A stretch of DNA of 64,000 nucleotides from an uncultured Gammaproteobacteria bacterium (lineage in GTDB: Bacteria; Pseudomonadota; Gammaproteobacteria; Steroidobacterales; Steroidobacteraceae). The notes under the pieces are model-generated. The model was not told where the DNA came from and searched no databases. It worked only from the letters and a program-made list of their open reading frames with translations. Shown piece by piece: positions 1 through 11,575 of this stretch. The stretch's first letter is position 1. Each line of letters opens with the position of its first letter. The stretch spans positions 63,497 to 127,496 of the forward strand of contig CAVXET010000039.1 in assembly GCA_963760725.1 (NCBI GenBank), read 5' to 3'. The position numbers and the translations under genes are program-made.

Positions 1-2455
1 CGAGCGCGTCGACCTCGTCGATGACCGGCTGGAACGCGCCCTTCGCGCGAGGTCGGCCATGCGTCGACACGCGAGAGCTTGTGGCGCAGCAGGCTCTTCG
101 GCGTCATCACGATGAGCGGCTTGCGCAGCGCGCGCAGCATCTGCCGGCGCAGCATGTGGAACATCTGCGCCGGCGTCGACGGCACGCAGACCTGGTGGTT
201 CAGCTCGGCGGAGAGCTGCAGGAAGCGCTCGAGCCGCGCCGAACTGTGCTCCGGGCCCTGCCCTTCGTAGCCGTGCGGCAGGAACAGCGTGATGCCGGAG
301 ACGCGGCCCCACTTGGCCTCGCCCGAGGTGATGAACTGGTCGATGACGACCTGCGCGCCATTCACGAAGTCGCCGAACTGGCCCTCCCAGATCACGAGCG
401 TCGACGGATCGGTCGTCGAGTAGCCGTACTCGAAGCCGAGCACCGCCTCCTCCGACAGCGTCGAGTCGATGACCCGGAAGCGGACCTTGTCCTTCGGCGA
501 CGCGCACGAGCGGCGTGTCGGTCCTGCCGGTCGCCTGGTCGTGCAGCACGGCGTGGCGGTGGAAGAACGTGCCGCGCGCCGTGTCCTGGCCGGTGAGGCG
601 GATGTCGTAGCCGTCCGTCAGGAGCGTCGCGTACGCCATCGTCTCGGCCGCGCCCCAGTCGAGCGGCAGCTCGTCCGCGTACATGCGCGCGCGGTCGTCG
701 ATGATGCGCGCCACGCGCGGGTGCAGCGTGAAGCCCGCGGGCGGCTTGGTGAGCGTCCTGGCGAGCGTCGTCCATGCGTTTGCCGGTCGACCGCCGTCGC
801 GACCTTCTCGGACAGGTCCGCGTCGATATGGCGGCTCCAGTCCACGGTGAACTTGTTGCCGCTCGTGCCGGCGAAGGCCCGCGCCTGCGGCCGATCCTCC
901 TCGAGGCCGCGCCGGTAGTCCTCGAACATCGCCGCGGCCTGGCCCTCGTCCAGCAGGCCGTCCTGCTCGAGGCGCTGGCCGTAGATCTGGCGCGCGGTCG
1001 CGTGCTTGCGGATCGCCTGGTACATGAGCGGCTGCGTCGCCGCCGGCTCGTCGGCCTCGTTGTGGCCGTGGCGCCGGTAGCAGACGAGGTCGATGACCAC
1101 GTCCTTGCGGAACTTCATGCGGTAGTCGAGCGCGAGGCGCGCCACGAACACGACCGCCTCCGGGTCGTCCGCGTTCACGTGGAAGATCGGCGCCTCGATC
1201 ATCTTGGCGACGTCGCTGCAGTACAGCGTCGAGCGCGCGTCCGTCGGCTCGCTGGTCGTGAAGCCGACCTGGTTGTTGATCACGACGTGCAGCGTGCCGC
1301 CGGTCGCGAAGCCGCGCGCCTGCGAGAGCTGCAGCGTCTCCATGACGACGCCCTGGCCGGCGAACGCCGCGTCGCCGTGGATCAGGAGCGGCAGGATCGT
1401 CGCGCCCGTGGCGTCGCCGCGCTGCTCCTGGCGCGCGCGCACCGAGCCCTCGACCACCGCGTCGACGATCTCGAGGTGCGAAGGATTGAAGGCGAGCACC
1501 ACGTGCACGTTGCCGCCCGTCGTGCGCAGGTCCGCCGAGAAGCCCTTGTGGTACTTGACGTCACCGGAGCCCCGGGTGGCGTCCGTGTCGAGCTTGCCCT
1601 CGAACTCCGAGAACAGCATCGACGGCGACTTGCCGAGCACGTTGACCAGCACGTTGAGGCGGCCGCGATGCGCCATGCCGATGACGATTTCCTCGACGCC
1701 GCGCGGCGCCGCTCCGCTGCACGACGTCGTCGAGCAGCGGGATCAGCGCGTCGCCGCCCTCGAGCGAGAAGCGCTTCTGGCCGACGTAGCGCGTGTGCAG
1801 GTAGCGCTCGAGGCCCTCGGCCGCCGTGAGCTGCCACAGCAGGTTCAGGCGCTCGTCGTTGGTGAAGCGGTGGTGCAGCCGCCCGTCCTGGAAGCGGTCC
1901 TGGAGCCACAGCCGCTCCTCGCTCGTCGATACGTGCGCGAACTCGGCGCCGATGCGGCCGGTGTAGATGTGCCGGAGCTGCTTCAGGATCTCCGACAGCT
2001 TCATCTGCTTGTCGACGCCGCTGGTGCGGCTCGCGGTGTGGAACATCGTGTCCAGGTCCGCCTCGGTCAGGCCGACGTAGGCCGGGATCGAGCACCTTGC
2101 GGCATCGGCCGCTGCATCAGGCCGAGCGGGTCGATGTCCGCGATCAGGTGGCCGCGGTTCGCGTAGAACTGGATGAGGCGCGAGACCGAGGACTGCTTCT
2201 CGCGCGTCCGGTGTGCGGCGTCGGATGCGCAGGCGCCGCGGTCGACGGTCGCACGGCGACGGAGCTCGGCACGGGCTTCGCTGCCGGCTCGCGCGGCGCT
2301 GGCGTGCCGCCGCCGACCTGCCCGAAGAAATCACGCCATTCGGCGCTGACGCTCGCCGGGTCGTCCAGGAAGCGCTCGTACTGTTCTTCGACGTACGGCG
2401 CCTGCGCGCTCGAGAACGGGCTCGATTCGTAGAGTTCGCGCAGGGAGCGGCTCAT
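1..2455 (-). pseudogene. sucA: 2-oxoglutarate dehydrogenase E1 component (SucA). The 3' end runs off the window and the gene has several frame breaks.
   Basis: The minus-strand ATG at 2455 gives MSRSLRELYESSPFSSAQAPYVEEQYERFLDDPASVSAEWRDFF. The sequence continues in ORF 1561-2334 (GRIGAEFAHVSTSEERLWLQDRF, YLHTRYVGQKRFSLEGGDALIPLLD) and ORF 618-1676 (MAHRGRLNVLVNVLGK, HGDAAFAGQGVV, CYRRHGHNEADEP). An open frame then runs to position 1 ([31 protein letters not shown]). These are hallmark E1o segments, but they lie in at least three frames, with breaks near 490, 780, 1680 and 2100-2290. Confidence 0.88.
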
Positions 2456-2469
2456 GGCCTGACGAATTA

Positions 2470-2487
2470 TACCGGACCTGTCCGGTA
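2470..2487. other. Inverted repeat/hairpin in the 46-nt gap between the subtilase stop and the sucA start
   Basis: TACCGGAC-CT-GTCCGGTA read directly. On the minus strand it is preceded by a T7 run and followed by TATAAT, which sits 10 nt before the sucA ATG. I cannot decide between terminator, operator or promoter context. Confidence 0.3.
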
Positions 2488-2501
2488 CGGAAAAAAACCT
2501 C

Positions 2502-4825
2502 TTACGCCTCGCAAGGCGGCGCCGGTAAAGGCTCCACCTCCTTGGCAAGCATCACAGCCTCGAGCACGTCTAGGCGACCGTAACCATAGAAGTCGCTGAT
2601 CCACGTCAAGCCCTTCTGTAGCGAACCGCACGTCGGGGCTCGGATGGTGGAATAGCGCCTCTGCCGGTGCGCCAACGACCCGTCTGCGCGTTGCCCGAGC
2701 AATCAACTACATCGGACGTGTTATCGCAATCAATCTTCACGGCCGAAGCACAAAGCACGCGACATACTTGATCCCAATTCAGGTTGGGATTGACTGTGAG
2801 CACCAGCGCCGCAGCGCCTGAAACCATCGCCGCGGCAGCGGACGTTCCGCCATGCATCGCGAGGCCCTTCCCTGCATTCGCGTCGTCGCTGCAGAGTGGC
2901 GCCTGCCCCAACCCAATTCGCGGGCTCAGCGATGGCGCTCCTTGGCCATTTGCGCACAGGTCGAGAAATGGACCATAGTTCGAACCTCGCGGGTGTGGCC
3001 GCCCATCCATCTCGGCGACCCATCGCGACTCGCTGTTGCCTTGAGTGTTCGTGTTGCCGACGCCGATCGTGAACGGAAACGTCGCGAGAGTCTGGTCGTC
3101 CTCGATGTCGCAATTGTCGTTGCCAGCCGAATACACCACTATGGTTCCTCGACCGCCGCGGCCAAGACAGGCTAGCTTCTTCAGGGCGTACTTGACACGC
3201 GCTTGCACCACCATCCCGCCCAAACCGTGCGAGCAATTGATGATGTCCGCCGGCTTGTCAATCGGCGACGCACCTGAAGCCCGCCTCGGAGGTGTCTCAC
3301 GAATGCCGCCGACCCATGCGTAGAGTGTCCGCATAGTTCCGTGTGTCCTGAATGAAAATGCCGGTGAACTCGAGCGCGAGATGATTCACGTGCGGAGCTA
3401 CACCAGCAATGCCGAACTCGTTGTCGGGTTTCGCTGAAATGAGGCCATATGTGGCCATTCCGTGCCACTTGCTCGCATCCAGCGCGGGAACTCCACTGCA
3501 GCCTGTATTTGACTCCACGCTGTAGCAATAGCGCAGCCGCTCGACATCGACATCGGGATGATCACTGCTGCCGGTCACGGAGTCGAACGTAATTCCGCTG
3601 TCGATCGATGCAACGCGGATTTCAGCCGATCCGTACCGCTTTGCCGGATCGATAGCCTCGAGGAAACACCATGCTTGCCTGACTCGCTGCCTCTCGAGAC
3701 TGCCCTGACAAGCGCTAAATGGATCACTTGTCGAGTTCGACTGGCAAAGAAACATCCTGATCAAACCTGCGATGGACCCGGCGCCGTGTGATGGTCCATG
3801 GTTCTGGATCTGGAAGAGGAGATTCGGCTCACCAGATAACAGGGTGCCTACCCGGTATTCACGATTGACGACGTTTAGATGACGCCCGATATTCTGTGGA
3901 TCCTCGAAATCGATCAGCCAGAAGTCACCGAGCGGCTCTGATTCCGGAATCATGTTTGCTTGCAGCGTCTTGGCATAGCGTTGGGCCTCCTCGCCGCTGA
4001 CGGTTCTCGGCAATTGCACGATATACTGGCTGTCGATGATTCGAACAATTCCGGCCTCTGTCTGCGTCGGAGCACCAACCCTTCCTCCATAGCCCGCAAA
4101 CACAGTCCTTAACTGGACTACTGCATCCGGCGTCACAAGAGTGTGGGCCTGGCCGGGATCCGGCTCGAACGAAAAGAACGAGACGGACGGATTGGCGGGC
4201 ACGAAGACAGCACCGAGCCATTCACACTGTCCATCTGCGCCCCGGTGTCGGGATCGCGCGTTACCGGCCGAAAGCCCGCGCCGGAAGCCCGGGCGTACAG
4301 ATCGGTTATCTCCTGGTCGCTCAACCGGCGCTCCATTGCGACGCCCGCTAGCCGGGCCCGAGGCTCAAAAGGAATCTCGATCCCGTCCAGCAGGTATGCC
4401 GGCCAACCGACCGGTACGAGGTACGTTCTAGCCACCGAAAGCGAGCCCTTCACTTCTATCGTCCGCTTGACGTCTCGATGACCCCTGGCGCGCACCGCGA
4501 TGGTGTAGGTTCTTCCAGTTTGAACGATCCTTTCGTATACCAGGCCCGAGCGGACTCTCGGCACGTCGAGCCACTGACCATCGACCTCAATGGCGATGCT
4601 TATGTCGACCGGCACTGCCCGGTTCGGCGGCGACCTCACCGTAACCCGGAGCAGCCCCGTCGCTCGTGCTGCGTCGTCCGGCGAAACCAGAGAGATAGTG
4701 GGGTCCGCACTCGCGTTTGTCGGCGCAAGAGCCAGCGTCGAAGCCGACGCTGCAATCGCCTTGATCAGCTGACGCCGATCCATAACAAGGCAGCCCGTTG
4801 AGGTCAATCGCTTGAAACGCCGCAT
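2502..4825 (-). pseudogene. Tat-signal subtilisin-like serine protease (peptidase S8) with a long N-terminal extension; about 3 frame breaks
   Basis: Four minus-strand pieces join into one subtilase only if frame changes are allowed near 4205-4245, 3300-3335 and 2690. Piece 4133-4825 carries a twin-arginine signal (DRRQLIKAIAASASTLALAPTNASA). Piece 3297-4202 carries VASIDSGI (catalytic Asp) and WHGMATYGLISA (catalytic His). Piece 2606-3334 carries INCSHGLGG, VVYSAGND (oxyanion Asn) and HGGTSAAAAMVSGAAAL (catalytic Ser). Piece 2502-2702 carries FYGYGRLDVLEAV, a typical S8 C-terminus. Confidence 0.8.
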
Positions 4826-4869
4826 AAGGCGACTCCTCTTCTGTCAGTGCCGGCCAGGTACACAGACTA

Positions 4870-5372
4870 CTAGTAGCAGCAGCAGGTGGCAGTCGTGCAA
4901 TGGCAGCGCTTCGGGAACTTGCATGGATCGGTGGAGGTGAGGGGTGCACATGCGGCGATCGTGCGCTCCTTGACGAAGCCAAGGTATTCAACACTCTCCG
5001 GAGAACCTGGAACGTCGTCGGCACCCGGGCTGGAGTTTCCGACTCTTGGTCAAACGTGTAGTAGACCGCCATAACCGCAAAACGTGACATGGGAACATTC
5101 GTTCCTGAGATGAGCGGGACGCTCCGTTCGGTCAACATCGGGACCGGCATGACAGAGTCGTCAATGTCGACCAGCTTGCGCGTTTCGATTTCCCCATCCG
5201 GAACCTCTTCGACTTGTAGGAGCCGACTCTGCGCATCGTAGTAGAAAGCGCGATACTTGCTCTGCGGGTCAGCCTGCGCGGGTGACGATGCAAGTACCAC
5301 CGCTAGCATCAATGCAATGGCGCAAAAGCGTGCGGAAAGAAGGTTCGTCTCCCGGAAAATATCGTTTGTCAT
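4870..5372 (-). pseudogene. Small secreted hypothetical protein. The N-terminal part is in the frame of ORF 4587-5372, and the probable true C-terminus is a Cys-rich tail in another frame.
   Basis: The N-terminus MTNDIFRETNLLSARFCAIALMLAVVLASSPAQA looks like a Sec signal peptide. After about 5000-5040 the listed frame loses GC3 bias and overlaps the next gene by more than 200 nt. A second frame reads PGADDVPGSPESVEYLGFVKERTIAACAPLTSTDPCKFPKRCHCTTATCCCY, with a TAG stop at 4870-4872, 44 nt before the next start. Confidence 0.5.
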
Positions 5373-5414
5373 AGTTGTCTCCTATTGGTTTCTTGCATGC
5401 GGTCCCAAGGAACG

Positions 5415-8400
5415 TCAAAACACGAGGGATGCCCGAAACAGCACCACTCGCTCCCGTGCGAATTGCCGGGTAAACAAGTCGGTCTCCTGGAAACGGTATT
5501 GCTCGTCGAACAGATTCCGCCCCTCGAGGGACAGCGTGCCTTGCCGATTCGGCAACCTATAGCCAAGGGTCAAGTCCGCAATCCAGAATGAATCCTCGTC
5601 CGGGACGGGCTCAGGCCCGGCGTCGATGAAGAAGAACTCGCCAGTTTGCCTCACATATGTTGCAGTCGCGCGCACGAAGAACTTGGACCATGCATGTACC
5701 GCCAGGCCGAGCGGCATCGCGCGCGTCTTGATCTTCACGATCAGCTCTTTGCCCGGGAACGCATCCGGTCTCTCGAATTCCTCCGCCGAGTATTCGCCGG
5801 TTACAGCAATCGAGTCGGTCGCCGCCCAATAGGCATGGAGACCCGTATTGCGCTCGTCCCATTCGAATCGCTCGCCCGACACGTCGAAGGGAACCGTCAG
5901 ATCGCGGCGACTCCACTCCGCTCCGACGAACAGACGGTCGGTAAAAGACTGATCGAAGGCAAAACCGGTCCTGCGCGAACTGGTCGCCGCAAGATCGTCA
6001 TAGAACTGGTTGAATCCTGCGACTTGGGTCGGCTCGATCGTCTCAGCTGCGGCAAACTGCCGAGCTAGCGTCTCAAACGTCGCCGCACGCAGAATCGCGC
6101 CTTGCCATTGGGGACCAAGTGAATCCGATCTTCGGGTTAACGTTGGTCCTCGAAGGCGTCAAGTCGTTGCGGTCGGCGAGGTAGTCGATGGACACGCCGA
6201 GGTGAATCGACAACGGGTAGTCCATCGGAGCTTGAATTCACGTATACGTACGCGTTTGCTGCGTGCGGTCGGAATCGGTCGGGACTCCTAAGAATAAGAT
6301 GCCTCCTGCGTCTCCGAGTCGAATCCGAGCCCGGTCACGAAATTGAACTTGTCCCGCACCAGGACATGCTGAGCCTCCCCGACGTAGGTACGAAGCAGTC
6401 CTGTTCGACCGCCAGTCTCACCCGACGATTCCGATTCGCTCACGCTGGTCAATGGCGGCGAGCGACACGATGAAATGTGAACCCGGCGCGAAGTCCTTCC
6501 TCATGCCTAGCCGGATCCGGAGATCCCGCACATCGTGCCTATCGTCAATTACAAGATTCGGATCAAAAGCGAGGAGCGGATCGCCGAAACGTGAGTTCGA
6601 ATGCCTAATGTCGGCTTGGACGCTCAAATCCGGCGCGGCCTGATGCTGCACGAATGCACCGTACAGCCGCTTGTCGAAATCGTCGTTTGCACGTGTGCCT
6701 TCGGTCGAGTACGCCAGCTGACTGAATGCAAACGCGGTTCGATCCTGGAGGCCTGATACGATCAGCTGGTCTCCCCAAGTGCCCAGGTTTCCTCCTAGGA
6801 CGTCAGCCTGAAACGCGAGGCCGTTTCGGGTGTACATGGGCGTGTACTCGTTGAACCCGGTTCCGGTCGGCCCGGTGGCCTTCAATACGAAGAAGTTGTC
6901 TTCGGTCAGCTGCGGCTGGATCGGATTCGTATTGAGCGGCTGAGTTAGCTGCGATTGCAGCAATTCGCTTCGTCGCGCGATCTCGTGCCTTGGAAGCGCG
7001 ACGTACGAATCGGCGAGGAATCGATGAGCCGATGAGCTGCCTGGATCGGCAATGATCGAGGCCGCGCTTTCCCGAAAGGCCTGCATGTTGAATCCAATTT
7101 CGTGATAAGCGCGGGCCAAGCTCACCGATCGCACGGCTCCGTCCTCGACCAGGAACTCCTTCGAGCGAAATACTGCGCGATTGTCGTTGAGTGCGATCGA
7201 TTCCTGGAGCTTCGTCACCGCATCGACCGGTTGGTTGATCGTCTGGAGTCGTATTGCGTCATACAGCAGTGGTGTGGGATCACGCGGATCCAGCTGTCTG
7301 GCAAGCTCGAATTGGGTGGCGGCCAGCGAGTCGCGATCCATGGAGCCTTCTTCGTAGTAGGCCTTGCCGACGTAACTCCGGAGAAGCGAGTTCGACGGGT
7401 CCAACGCAACCGCAATTTCGATCTGCTCCCTGCCTGGGATAAGTTCACCATCGCGGATTATCGCAAGCCCGAGCCCGAGTCTTGGCAGTGCGCTGAACGA
7501 GTCGCGGTCAATGGCCGCCGCGAAGTCCGACCTCGCGGCTTTCGTGTCGATCTGCGTAAGGTGAATGAATCCGAGCATGCTGTGCGCGTGACTCTCGGCG
7601 GGATTCGCCCTGATCGCCGCACGTGCCGCCTGCTCCGCGTTACGCGAGTCGCCGAGCGACAGCAACAACTCCGCCACGCGCGCGTGCGCCAGAGAACTGT
7701 CTCCCCGTAGCAACCCCGCCTTACGTGCGCTGGCGAGCGCACCCTCGAGATCGAAGGCTGCCTGCTGGGCGTAGGACGTCGCAAGCCAGCCCCGATAGTT
7801 TGCAGCGTCGGTTTCCGTTGCCTTAAGCGCCGATTCCAGTGCCGAGGCTTTGTCGTTCTTCGCAACCTGGATGACGGAGCGCAGGGCATGGGCATCGCTG
7901 CTCGAGGGATTGGACGCGAGCTCGGCGTCGATGGCCTTCAGGGCATCGTCGACGCTGCCCGCACGCAGCAGATTCTCGGCGGAGGAAATTCCAGACGTAG
8001 TCGAATGATCGCTTATCGGTGGGTACCGCAACACCCATTGCACGGCATCCTGCGGCCTGACAACGGTCGCGATCGCCGACGCACCACTCGGGCCGCTGAC
8101 CACACTTTGGCCTGCGGACACCAGCTCTGTATCGCCCGTTGCCAATGACTCCGATGAAACAGTCCCCTCTATCACCGTCAACTTCGACGCCTCTCGGCTC
8201 GCCTCCACCATGAATTCAGTGCCCTCCACTGCGGCATTCATGTGAGGAGTCGTAACCTTGAACTTCTTGGGAAATCGGGTGATGAGGTAAACGGCGCCAC
8301 AGCACCTCGACTTTTGTGCGCCTGTCGCGAGCTCGTCCGCGTGAAGCTCGATGTGGGTCACTTCGGCAGTCTGGCGAAGCGTGATCGTCGTGTTCTGGTC

Positions 8401-8778
8401 CAGGCGTACCAGAGTCTCCGGTTGGACGAAGAGTGCCGCACGGCTGAGGCCTGCGACGCGCAGCCGGTCGCCCGCGCAGACGGTCGTGTCGAGCCTTCGC
8501 ACGCTCGACCATGCTCCCGCCCCGCCTCGCTGCACGTGGACATCGCCCTGAAGCGATACGACGCGCGCGATGGCCGGCGCACAGGCCGGTGTTTCTTGCG
8601 CCTGAGCAGGCTCGCGGAACAACAACGCAAACCCAGCAGCCAACACGAACAGGGAGACCCGGACTCTCCCGTAATCGCGCGTGGCGCCGAGTGCCGGCCC
8701 GACCCCCATCTCCCCGCCCCCTTTTTGCTTGAAATCAAAAAGCTCGGGCGAATTTCTTTTACTTGGCTGCGGCTGCAC
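5415..8778 (-). pseudogene. Large envelope protein: signal peptide, FecR domain, long TPR region and C-terminal outer-membrane beta-barrel. It is disrupted between about 6100 and 6425.
   Basis: ORF 6418-8778 has a signal-like segment (VSLFVLAAGFALLFREPAQAQE) and FecR-type segments (VVSLQGDVHVQRGGAGAW...CAGDRLRVAGLSRAALFV; KVTTPHMNAAVEGTEFMV...TVIEGTV). About 350 aa of TPR-like helices follow. ORF 5415-5882 ends LSLEGRNLFDEQYRFQE...RASLVF, an OMP-type C-terminal Phe. My hand translation of 5882-6424 links the two through SGETGGRTGLLRTYVGEAQHVLVRDKFNFVTGLGFDSETQEASYS, DYPLSIHLGVSIDYLADRNDLTPSRTNVNPKIGFTWSP and WQGAILRAATFETLARQ...GAEWSRRDLTVPFDVSGERFEWDE, which lie in different frames. An alternative start is the Met at 8709. 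Confidence 0.75.
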
Positions 8779-8914
8779 GGTAGTCCTTCAGGCACCCCGG
8801 CGCAATGCGCGGCGGAGTTGCCGGTAGCCTTTGATGGCTAGAAGGCTAATGACGTACCGGGTAGGTTTCTGTCAGGGACCCGACAGTAGTCCGAAAAGTG
8901 ATTGAACTTGTCGA

Positions 8915-11192
8915 TCAAGCGACTACCCACGCGCCGTCGCGCGCCACGACCTCGCCGTCAAGGCACTTCAAGTAGAACCGCGTTGGACCGTCTTCCGGGA
9001 AAGTCTCTAGAATGGCTCTAAATCGCAACTGCGCTTCCCCCGAATCTCCCTGGCCGAGCGTCCGGAGCGCATCGTCGAATCGATCGCAGAGTTCCAGCTC
9101 CCACGGCTTGGCTCTGGCACGCCGGTCCAATAGCTCGAACACGTGTATCGCATGGCTCTTGCCGCGGAGAAGGAAGCGTCCGACGTCCCGCAAAAGGAAC
9201 GGTACCCCGGCATCCCCGATCGCCGACTCGGACACAAGGATCCGGGTACCGAGCTTCTTGTTGAGCTCCTGGATTCGCGTCGCCGCGTTGACGGCATCGC
9301 CGACCGCCCGGTACTCGTAATGACCGTGCGCGCCGACCGTCGAAAGCGTGACCCTGCCCCAGTCGACGCCAAAGCGCGTCAACAAGCGACTACCAGCAAG
9401 TTGTTCGTTGAACTGTTGGGCCGCGTCGCTCATCTCGAGCAGGGCGTGCAGAAGCTGCACGTGGGTATCCTCGGTCCGGTGCGGCCATATCGCGAGCATC
9501 GCGTCACCCACCACATCCGAGACAAATCCGCCGCGATCGGCGACGTGGCCGAACAGCGCCTCAAAGTAGTGATTGAGGAAAGCTGTCAACGCCTCGGGCG
9601 TCATCGTCTCCGCGAGCGGCGTGAAGTTCGCGGCGTCCGTCGCGACGCAGGCGCAGTCCGTGGATTCCTGGGAGGTGCCGATCTCCCCGGCATTGCGCTC
9701 GAGCGTGGCCACGACATCGCGGGGCACGAAGTAGCTTATGGCCTGGCGCAATTGCGCCCTTTGCCGGTGCGCGGTCCAGAACTTCCAGCCGAACGAGCTC
9801 AACATACCGAGCGGCGCCGCAACGAGTAGTGGAATGACGACGGGAATCCACAACTGCCGCGACTGGAAGGCGTACAACGCTGCGGCCGCATAGGCGATAG
9901 CGCCAGCACCGACGATCGCGATCGCCCGCCTGTTGCGAAGACGATCGCAAGTGCCGTAGGTGAGTAGCCCGGCCAAGAACGTCAATCCGAGCCAATAGAT
10001 GAACGGCAACTCGCGCAAGGTCCGGTCGTCGCGGAGATTGGCAAATGCGGTCGCCGCAATCTCGACGCCGCTGAGGTCCGCGCTATCGTCGGACGAGTAG
10101 GCGGTCGCGAAATGCTCGATTTGCTCGAGTTCCTCCGTTTCGCCGTAGCCGACGAAATACGATCCGACCGCGGAAGCGTGCGTCATTTACCAGCGGCGCC
10201 GCACCGAGTACCTGGTCGTAGCCGATTGCCGGAATCGTGCCTGAAGGGCCGTAGAGGTTCAGGAATCGGGTTCCCGAACCGCGCATAGAGTGCGACCAGC
10301 GAGCGTTCGGAGGACGACCGGGTGGCGCCTTTCCCTGCAGGCGCCGCCAGGACTTCCTCAAACCTCTCGTTCAGTGTTCGTCGCCACGGACGATCTGCCG
10401 AATCAACAGCGACGTCGCCTGGAGTTGCCGCTGCGCGAGCATGTGTTCGGACGACGTAGGCAGCAGCTCTCCCATTTCGCCGGCGTGTTCAGCCAGGAAC
10501 TGGCGCAGGAAGGCATAACCGTCCATGGCGTGCGCCTGCAACGCGATCGCGGGCAAGGTGGGGGTAACAAAGCCTTCCTCCTTGAAGGCCATGAAACGGT
10601 CCACGCGACGACTCGCGTCGACGACCACCGGGAACGGCGCCAACCCCAGTACTGCATTTGCAATCACCGGGCTGACGGCGACGAGCGACTCGTCCTCGGC
10701 CCCTCCTTCGACTTTTTGTGCAATGAGCACCCGGCCTTGCGATGCAAGGGTCGCGAACTCCTGGTCTTGCCAGGCATGGAGGTCACCGTCCTTCCCGGGC
10801 AACGGCGGCCGCTCGCGGAACAAGACATCGAACACCACCAACTCCACGGCGGCCGCCTGGAGTACGCGAAGCAGTCGAGCGTGTAGACAACGAGGCCAAC
10901 GCGACGGCATGGCAGGAACGCTCACGTGCGTTGCGGGACGCGCGCCGATGTGAAGGCCTTCGCAGCGGTAGAAGCTCTCGCCGTCGCGCGGCAGCGAGAG
11001 GTTGTCCGCCGCCTGCTGATTGATCAACACGAGCGTGATATCCGCAGGTGGATCGACGGGCCCGCGCAGCTGAAACAGCCACCTCAGGCCGACCTGCTGC
11101 TCGGTCGCGCGCACTGCTGGAATGGCAAGGAGCGCGGCGCTCATCGCACCGACCCCGACGCCGGCCAGGACCGCAAGCCACCGCGCTTTCAT
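8915..11192 (-). pseudogene. CHASE2 extracytoplasmic sensor / class III adenylate-guanylate cyclase; 2 frame breaks
   Basis: ORF 10371-11192 has an N-terminal TM segment plus CHASE2-type segments (LRWLFQLRGPVDPPADITLVLINQQ; WPRCLHARLLRVLQAAAVELVVFDVLFRE). Bridging ORF 10083-10361 has FLNLYGPSGTIPAIGYDQVL. ORF 8915-10186 has TM helices (PFIYWLGLTFLAGLL, AIAIVGAGAIAYAAAALYAF, IPVVIPLLVAAPLGML) followed by a cyclase domain (CVATDAANFTPLAE, FVSDVVGDAMLAIW, YRAVGDAVNAATRIQELNK). Breaks are near 10365 and 10170. Confidence 0.82.
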
Positions 11193-11575
11193 GACGCGCC
11201 GGGATCATGCCGGATCGCCCGGCTGGGTGCCATCTCGCTGATTGTGTCAGGCGGTTGACAGAATGGCCTGGAGATTTGGCCAACTATCCAAACCACATCG
11301 AGTGTGAGTGGCAACAACGACCAGCGGAGTACGAACATGACTAACGGAATGTCTTCGCGCACCCGACATATCGTCTCGAGCCTGGCGGCCCTTGGAACGA
11401 CGGCCCTGCTCCTGCCCGCGGTAGTCAACTCGTCCGACACGCGGCTGCAGGCGAGCCCCAGTGCCTCTGAGCCCGCCAGTGCGGTCGTTGCCTGGTCACG
11501 GCGTGGTGACCGGAAGGTCTGAATGCGCGAGCGGCGCCGCGAGTCGGCTGGACGCCATTTTTCTTGGCCGCTGAC

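Follow-up and report, generated by a model that had tools for sequence, protein, structure and literature searches.

The stretch of DNA analysed here (the window) comprises 64,000 nucleotides of contig CAVXET010000039.1 from an uncultured gammaproteobacterium of the family Steroidobacteraceae (assembly GCA_963760725.1). On its reverse strand it carries a gene whose repaired product joins a signal peptide, a FecR domain, an array of tetratricopeptide repeats (TPR) and a C-terminal outer-membrane barrel in one polypeptide. An earlier note, made from the letters alone, had described this layout and its neighbours. These are present as described (Table 1): upstream, a gene encoding CHASE2 and Guanylate_cyc domains and, downstream, a small open reading frame (ORF) with a signal peptide and a Peptidase_S8 gene. 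All the peptides quoted then (VVSLQGDVHVQRGG, KVTTPHMNAAVEGTEFMV and LSLEGRNLFDEQYRFQE...RASLVF) were found in the translations.

The longest ORF of the gene spans 6418..8778 (-) and encodes 786 amino acids counted from a GTG codon; in the public protein collection the start has been called at the ATG at 8709 (P0001, 763 amino acids). Between ~6100 and ~6430 the frame shifts repeatedly. Frameshift-aware alignment against P0002, the closest full-length homologue (1096 amino acids), located six indels of 1-2 nucleotides at ~6426, 6413, 6397, 6293, 6229 and 6108, all within the part of the gene that encodes the barrel, where the conserved long connection L7 (IEPTQVAGFNQFYDD) also lies. Repairing the frame computationally, as the earlier note had proposed, yields a product 62% identical to P0002.

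Table 1. Features of the FecR-TPR-barrel gene and its neighbourhood, in window positions.
Feature	Position	Strand	Details
Whole FecR-TPR-barrel gene (NsrA-like)	5415..8709	(-)	repaired product 1095 amino acids; stop codon 5415-5417
Signal peptide, predicted	8596..8709	(-)	MGVGPALGATRDYGRVRVSLFVLAAGFALLFREPAQAQ then ETPAC...; cleavage site inferred by eye
FecR beta-sandwich domain	8092..8568	(-)	Pfam PF04773 core 8158-8466
TPR solenoid, ~360 amino acids, ~20 helices	6901..7986	(-)	TPR_16 E 3.4e-11 (Pfam) and structural model
C-terminal barrel, predicted 22 strands, TonB-dependent-transporter-like, ~465 amino acids	5418..6822	(-)	ends ...RASLVF (terminal Phe)
CHASE2 + class-III nucleotide cyclase gene (Guanylate_cyc)	8915..11241	(-)	directly upstream of the barrel gene
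Small signal-peptide protein	4861..5372	(-)	directly downstream of the barrel gene; motif YRAFYYDAQSRLLQVEEV
Peptidase_S8 (subtilase) gene	2606..4825	(-)	Tat-like signal (MDRRQLIKAIAASAS...); at least 5 indels
sucA (2-oxoglutarate dehydrogenase E1)	1..2455	(-)	outside the system; control for indels

Pfam searches and a structural model bear out the sequence of domains that the earlier note had read from the letters, from signal peptide to terminal Phe. The FecR domain matches PF04773 (E 4.7e-12) straight after the signal-peptide-like N-terminus, and includes the motif AAVEGTEF, which is invariant, and two Cys residues that are nearly so. The C-terminal piece (5415..6098, 227 codons) gave a sub-threshold match to TonB_dep_Rec_b-barrel (E 9e-4). 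Pfam detected no plug domain (PF07715) in the window ORF, P0002, P0004 or NsrA of Sinorhizobium meliloti, the relative discussed below; nor did it detect FecR_C (DUF4974), an anti-sigma domain or DUF560, and no STN domain was among the listed matches. A sequence search of the PDB with the FecR domain returned nothing at E<=1.

Structure was modelled on P0002 with 113 homologues, standing in for the repaired window protein. The AlphaFold model has a mean predicted local distance difference test score (pLDDT) of 87 and a predicted template modelling score of 0.86, and is laid out as a beta-sandwich (residues 47-205), ~20 helices (241-602) and 22 beta-strands (629-1095), preceded by a helix of low pLDDT (17-26) in the signal-peptide region. 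When the model was compared with the PDB using Foldseek, the best 50 listed matches were all TonB-dependent transporters (E ~1e-15, probability 1.0), including FpvA, FptA, PqqU, BtuB, FecA and FhuA. The C-terminal region is thereby predicted to be a 22-strand barrel of TonB-dependent-transporter type, which, on the model, upholds the barrel proposed in the earlier note and answers its question about the nearest barrel family. It does not uphold the likeness drawn to BcsC, PgaA, PelB and Slam/T11SS proteins, which consists in a C-terminal outer-membrane barrel preceded, in the same protein, by periplasmic TPR; exopolysaccharide exporters have 16-18 strands and Slam/DUF560 proteins 14, whereas the window-type barrel is modelled with 22 and has only transporters among its top-listed structural matches.

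With TonB-dependent transporters such as FecA, FpvA, BtuB and FptA the window protein shares, besides this best structural match, an aromatic final residue, and many homologues match PF00593. Those transporters have a plug (PF07715), whereas the N-terminal part of the window protein consists of FecR and TPR. Its surface loops are also much shorter than theirs, the majority being predicted at merely 2-10 amino acids, and three long barrel connections are strongly conserved: L2 (DGFRADDD), L7 (28 amino acids) and L11 (23 amino acids). L7 contains the invariant EPTQVAGFNQF, recognisable in NsrA also. L2, L7 and L11 probably line or close the barrel lumen in place of a plug. Across the family, conservation (expressed as the majority fraction) is 0.70-0.72 in the periplasmic modules versus 0.47 in the barrel strands, and the TPR solenoid is the most conserved part; the higher conservation of the periplasmic modules fits a conserved protein-protein contact.

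The fusion is the norm, not an oddity. A word-indexed protein search gave 1576 matches, with full-length proteins of 1050-1160 amino acids; among the 120 best homologues, 113 were at least 1000 amino acids long and carried PF04773 and TPR. A profile search run exhaustively over 1.84 billion cluster representatives recovered no fewer than 2,728 clusters, defined at 50% identity, with E<=1e-30; of the top 150 representatives, almost all covered the whole profile. These lengths bear out the single polypeptide of the earlier note, and full-length fused homologues, not separate genes for the FecR-TPR and barrel parts, are the rule. In contigs from one genome per species, 206 relatives were confirmed. 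The survey of full-length homologues extends over several phyla: the best 79 loci come from Gammaproteobacteria (Steroidobacteraceae, Chromatiales, Methylococcales and Competibacteraceae) as well as from Burkholderiales, Nitrosomonas, Desulfobacterales, Nitrospirota, Acidobacteriota, Poribacteria and Rhodospirillales. Because no Pfam or NCBIfam model matches the whole protein, family members bear varied annotations: PilF ('Tfp pilus assembly protein PilF'), TPR repeat protein, TadD, FecR domain-containing protein and TonB-dependent receptor.

The earlier note had held that TPR-plus-barrel proteins were not known with an N-terminal FecR module; this claim falls, since the full-length architecture is common and NsrA has it too. 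We recomputed the architecture of NsrA from the DNA of pSymB, on which the annotated nsrA lies directly upstream of cyaK: the product contains a FecR domain (E 8.7e-15), TPR and a long C-terminal region, and the next gene encodes CHASE2 and Guanylate_cyc domains. Garnerone 2018 is the original study of NsrA, cited by later papers for its role in signal perception. A BLASTP alignment of the window protein with NsrA is collinear through FecR (30%), TPR (27%) and a barrel motif, NPKLG..W.P..G..LRAA ... EPTQVAGF.NQF, and profile-profile alignment of the two families with hhalign starts in the FecR domain and continues through the whole barrel (99.85% probability, E 9e-31, 1007 columns, 19% identity). 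The two proteins share a signal peptide, an N-terminal FecR domain, a central TPR region, a C-terminal barrel of ~500 amino acids with the motif around L7, and a gene that adjoins one for CHASE2 and Guanylate_cyc. They differ in that NsrA is ~100 amino acids longer, with an insert between FecR and TPR, and in that its locus lies on a rhizobial megaplasmid and has no small protein or protease downstream. By sequence comparison, the window protein is a distant, ordinary member of the NsrA kind, which is known but poorly characterised: a very large family in which NsrA alone has been studied.

According to PMC7529298 and PMC13001267, the CHASE2 cyclases CyaK and CyaD1/D2 need NsrA, predicted to be an outer-membrane beta-barrel protein, in order to perceive their signal; PMC7529298 describes this signal as peptidic, residing in a defined protease-sensitive extract fraction. 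As a separate observation, rhizobia carry a DUF5706 gene ('Pycsar system effector family protein') upstream of nsrA-cyaK in divergent orientation (3382-3927 in locus L083, S. meliloti pSymB; 2265-2804 in locus L085, Rhizobium sp. BG4); its product is possibly a cyclic-nucleotide-responsive effector beside the cyclase module.

Pairing with a CHASE2 cyclase is near-obligate in the family. In 67 of 81 related loci the cyclase gene is the immediate upstream neighbour on the same strand, and in 2 it lies elsewhere in the locus; 7 loci lacked sufficient flanking sequence, so that a CHASE2 class-III cyclase adjoins the barrel gene in 69 of the 74 informative loci. The window cyclase gene, split by four indels into ORFs at 10371..11192 and 8915..10186, shares 60% identity with its intact counterpart in locus L007. 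Its catalytic domain (8915-10186) retains both metal-binding Asp residues and the Asn/Arg pair, whereas the adenine-specifying Lys of CyaK (DKYIGD) is replaced in the window subfamily by an Asp (SDVVGD) that is conserved in L005, L007 and L016. Tandem FecR-TPR-barrel paralogues with no adjacent CHASE2 cyclase occur in one Thiotrichaceae metagenome-assembled genome (MAG) and one Nitrosomonas MAG (L049 4389-11252 and L056 3519-11162), and in L060, another locus without the cyclase, a protein that binds cyclic nucleoside monophosphates is encoded nearby.

Other systems offer partial parallels. In FecR/PupR-type anti-sigma factors, the periplasmic FecR domain contacts an outer-membrane transducer. 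The window protein shares the periplasmic FecR domain (PF04773) with them, but has no cytoplasmic anti-sigma domain, transmembrane helix or FecR_C match; its FecR domain is instead fused to an outer-membrane protein, and its inner-membrane partner is a CHASE2 cyclase. The window neighbours scanned (the cyclase, GNAT, AhpC, a histidine phosphatase, a pyridoxal-phosphate decarboxylase, S8 and sucA) included no adjacent extracytoplasmic function sigma factor or CRP-like gene. A system of the FecI/FecR/FecA type was rejected, since the analysis turned up neither a sigma factor nor an anti-sigma domain nor a plug. Closer in gene content are an operon of Burkholderia, with a LysM-FecR protein and a CHASE2 histidine kinase (PMC5192318), and a cluster of Campylobacterota, with a FecR-domain outer-membrane protein, a TPR protein and a CHASE2 cyclase (PMC9239204). 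Both share with the window a secreted FecR-domain protein encoded beside a CHASE2 receptor; the former differs in its peptidoglycan-binding LysM anchor and histidine kinase output, and the latter in that the FecR-domain outer-membrane protein and the TPR protein are encoded by separate genes.

Taken with the whole-length homology to NsrA, these observations lead us to the reading that we favour and consider fairly probable: that the gene encodes an outer-membrane co-receptor of the NsrA type, which works with the CHASE2 nucleotide cyclase encoded upstream. The barrel, with no detectable plug, would anchor the protein in the outer membrane, and the rigid TPR solenoid of ~360 amino acids would project from it into the periplasm, bearing the FecR beta-sandwich at its tip. 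We infer that signal would flow inwards: a signal encountered on the cell surface or inside the barrel would alter the barrel-TPR-FecR assembly, whose FecR/TPR end would directly touch the CHASE2 domain in the periplasm and switch on cyclic-nucleotide synthesis by the inner-membrane cyclase. The earlier note's suggestion that the protein anchors a periplasmic FecR sensor in the outer membrane beside a CHASE2 receptor thus appears essentially the right picture. That FecR and CHASE2 are paired again in the other architectures of PMC5192318 and PMC9239204 counts in favour of this reading.

Several points weigh against it. In the profile alignment with NsrA no more than 19% of positions are identical, and the two loci have opposite gene orders, nsrA preceding cyaK in S. 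meliloti and the cyclase coming first in the window. Five of the 74 informative loci have no adjacent cyclase among the ORFs checked. The Asp that replaces the adenine-specifying Lys makes the nucleotide product of the cyclase uncertain. Adjacency is the only direct evidence here that links the window FecR domain to the CHASE2 domain, and short surface loops combined with highly conserved long connections are unusual for a ligand-binding surface. Lastly, six indels in 320 nucleotides are denser than the window average, so that a damaged copy keeps a small residual probability.

The same barrel features could be read in terms of a passive uptake channel, in which the barrel merely admits a peptide or other solute that TPR/FecR or CHASE2 then senses in the periplasm, with no relay through the barrel. 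A 22-strand barrel in which Pfam detects no plug, short surface loops, and the resemblance of L2, L7 and L11, the most conserved barrel elements, to lumen or constriction elements are all compatible with such a channel, and TPR domains often bind peptides; the signal of NsrA is reported to be peptidic (PMC7529298). The covalent fusion of barrel, TPR and FecR, kept in thousands of clusters, would however be superfluous for a mere channel, and we regard this alternative as unlikely. The highly conserved periplasmic part and tiny surface loops would also suit a sensor of envelope state, in which the arm formed by TPR and FecR informs CHASE2 of the width of the periplasm or the integrity of the outer membrane, no specific ligand from outside being involved; the spread of the family across free-living environmental phyla without a host signal points the same way. 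Yet NsrA responds to a defined extract fraction, according to PMC7529298, and no envelope-stress genes were linked among the neighbours scanned, which makes this idea quite improbable.

Downstream of the barrel gene, the family repeatedly carries accessory genes. A small signal-peptide or lipobox-like ORF (same strand, 70-230 amino acids, start <=300 nucleotides from the barrel gene stop) is found in 45 of 72 loci (62%) versus 8% at random anchors. These small ORFs form linked clusters, one of which shows a 'YYD..G' hairpin motif and, at the C-terminus, a motif of four Cys residues. The window small ORF carries a hairpin-like motif and, when read in a different frame, finishes with a Cys-rich tail (...CKFPKRCHCTTATCCCY*); a frame break within it is probable, and its end is uncertain. 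Hidden Markov models of the clusters scored it at a non-significant E of 0.1-0.3 even when frame junctions were tried, a jackhmmer search started from it found no relatives, and it matched no Pfam or NCBIfam family; its membership of the small-protein clusters is only suggestive. The window S8 protein shows, by eye, Asp, His and Ser motifs resembling a catalytic triad. Secreted proteases are the two commonest downstream families among the 63 downstream ORFs scanned (S8 in 6, M12B in 5). After the small ORF, the protease slot holds S8 in the window and five other loci (L002, L006, L009 and L047 among them), a reprolysin-like M12B protease in L004, L007, L008, L015 and L046, and a C39-like protease in L033 (for example, L007 11907-13385 and L033 5726-7066).

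The earlier note had offered, as an alternative, a secretion pore for these two downstream proteins, comparable to the TPR-barrel exporters. The frequency of the small ORF and the prominence of secreted proteases speak for it, but a protease of any kind occurs in just about one-fifth of loci, the window S8 is matched in 3 loci only and bears its own Tat-like signal, and the near-universal partner is the cyclase. Add to this a predicted barrel that resembles TonB-dependent transporters and neither a 16-18-strand exporter nor a 14-strand Slam protein, and an NsrA phenotype that consists in lost signal perception, and a secretion pore becomes very improbable; the window neighbours scanned also included no linked polysaccharide-synthase or Slam-substrate genes. 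The S8 gene is a lineage-specific accessory. The small protein and M12B protease of L007 do not align to the downstream genes of the window, so the cassette has been swapped between lineages, and the replacement of one protease by a non-homologous one is a hint that they are functionally connected with the signalling module. G+C content, ~0.70 in sucA as well as in the upstream flank, drops within 2500-9000: it is 0.57-0.61 across S8, the small ORF and the barrel gene's 3' half. This drop, combined with the exchange of S8 and M12B at a conserved place ahead of sucA, suggests that the cassette was acquired recently. A scan of the operon for promoters and terminators was at chance level overall, the only plausible candidate being a stem-loop with a T-run (CTTGCGAGGCGTAAG AGGTTTTTTT) at 2501-2515 (-), after the S8 stop and before sucA, which is plausible as the operon terminator.

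The condition of the reading frames was judged on sucA, using frameshift-aware alignment guided by the intact genes of L007, a Steroidobacteraceae MAG. Although 89% identical to a Steroidobacteraceae SucA at the protein level, the window sucA contains 10 indels in 2455 nucleotides and no stops; the cyclase gene has 4 indels and the subtilase gene at least 5. Over window positions 1-11300, indels of 1-2 nucleotides occur about once per 400 nucleotides, often clustered 10-15 nucleotides apart, and split genes are seen too in related long contigs of similar source (ENA ERZ2503..., 'MFD' MAGs). Because the essential sucA cannot truly be broken ten times, the frame breaks in the FecR-TPR-barrel gene are most likely assembly errors, not decay, and the gene is probably intact in the organism. 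The stretch looks like the product of an indel-prone long-read assembly, and any 'pseudogene' call in the window therefore deserves distrust. That the barrel gene itself is a decaying pseudogene, functionless in the organism, as the crowding of its six indels and an operon G+C of ~0.58 versus 0.70 in the flanks might suggest, was rejected as highly improbable, given the same indel pattern in sucA and the cyclase gene, a repaired frame with zero in-frame stops that maintains ~60% identity to homologues between shifts, and the same gene splitting in the related MFD/ERZ contigs. The window gene is an ordinary family member within an indel-rich assembly.

The downstream small protein and the swapped protease cassette may be new, as the literature on NsrA and FecR-CHASE2 systems drawn on here makes no mention of them. 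They invite a bolder proposal, which we put forward as a long shot: the co-encoded protease would cut the small secreted Cys-rich protein, and the product would be sensed by the barrel-TPR-FecR protein and activate the CHASE2 cyclase. If true, such a self-contained module would form a proteolysis-gated autocrine or neighbour-sensing circuit, with an S8, M12B or C39-like protease according to lineage. It would also mean that CHASE2 domains act in general through a FecR-domain partner, which activates them in place of a small ligand.

For the family at large, the arrangement of NsrA with CyaK, described in a single rhizobium, turns out to be the rule in thousands of clusters from at least six phyla of free-living bacteria. 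No ligand of CHASE2 was known as of 2016 (PMC5192318). Given a confident structural model, the route by which a signal at the surface gets to a CHASE2 cyclase becomes a testable question of protein-protein contact, outside symbiosis.

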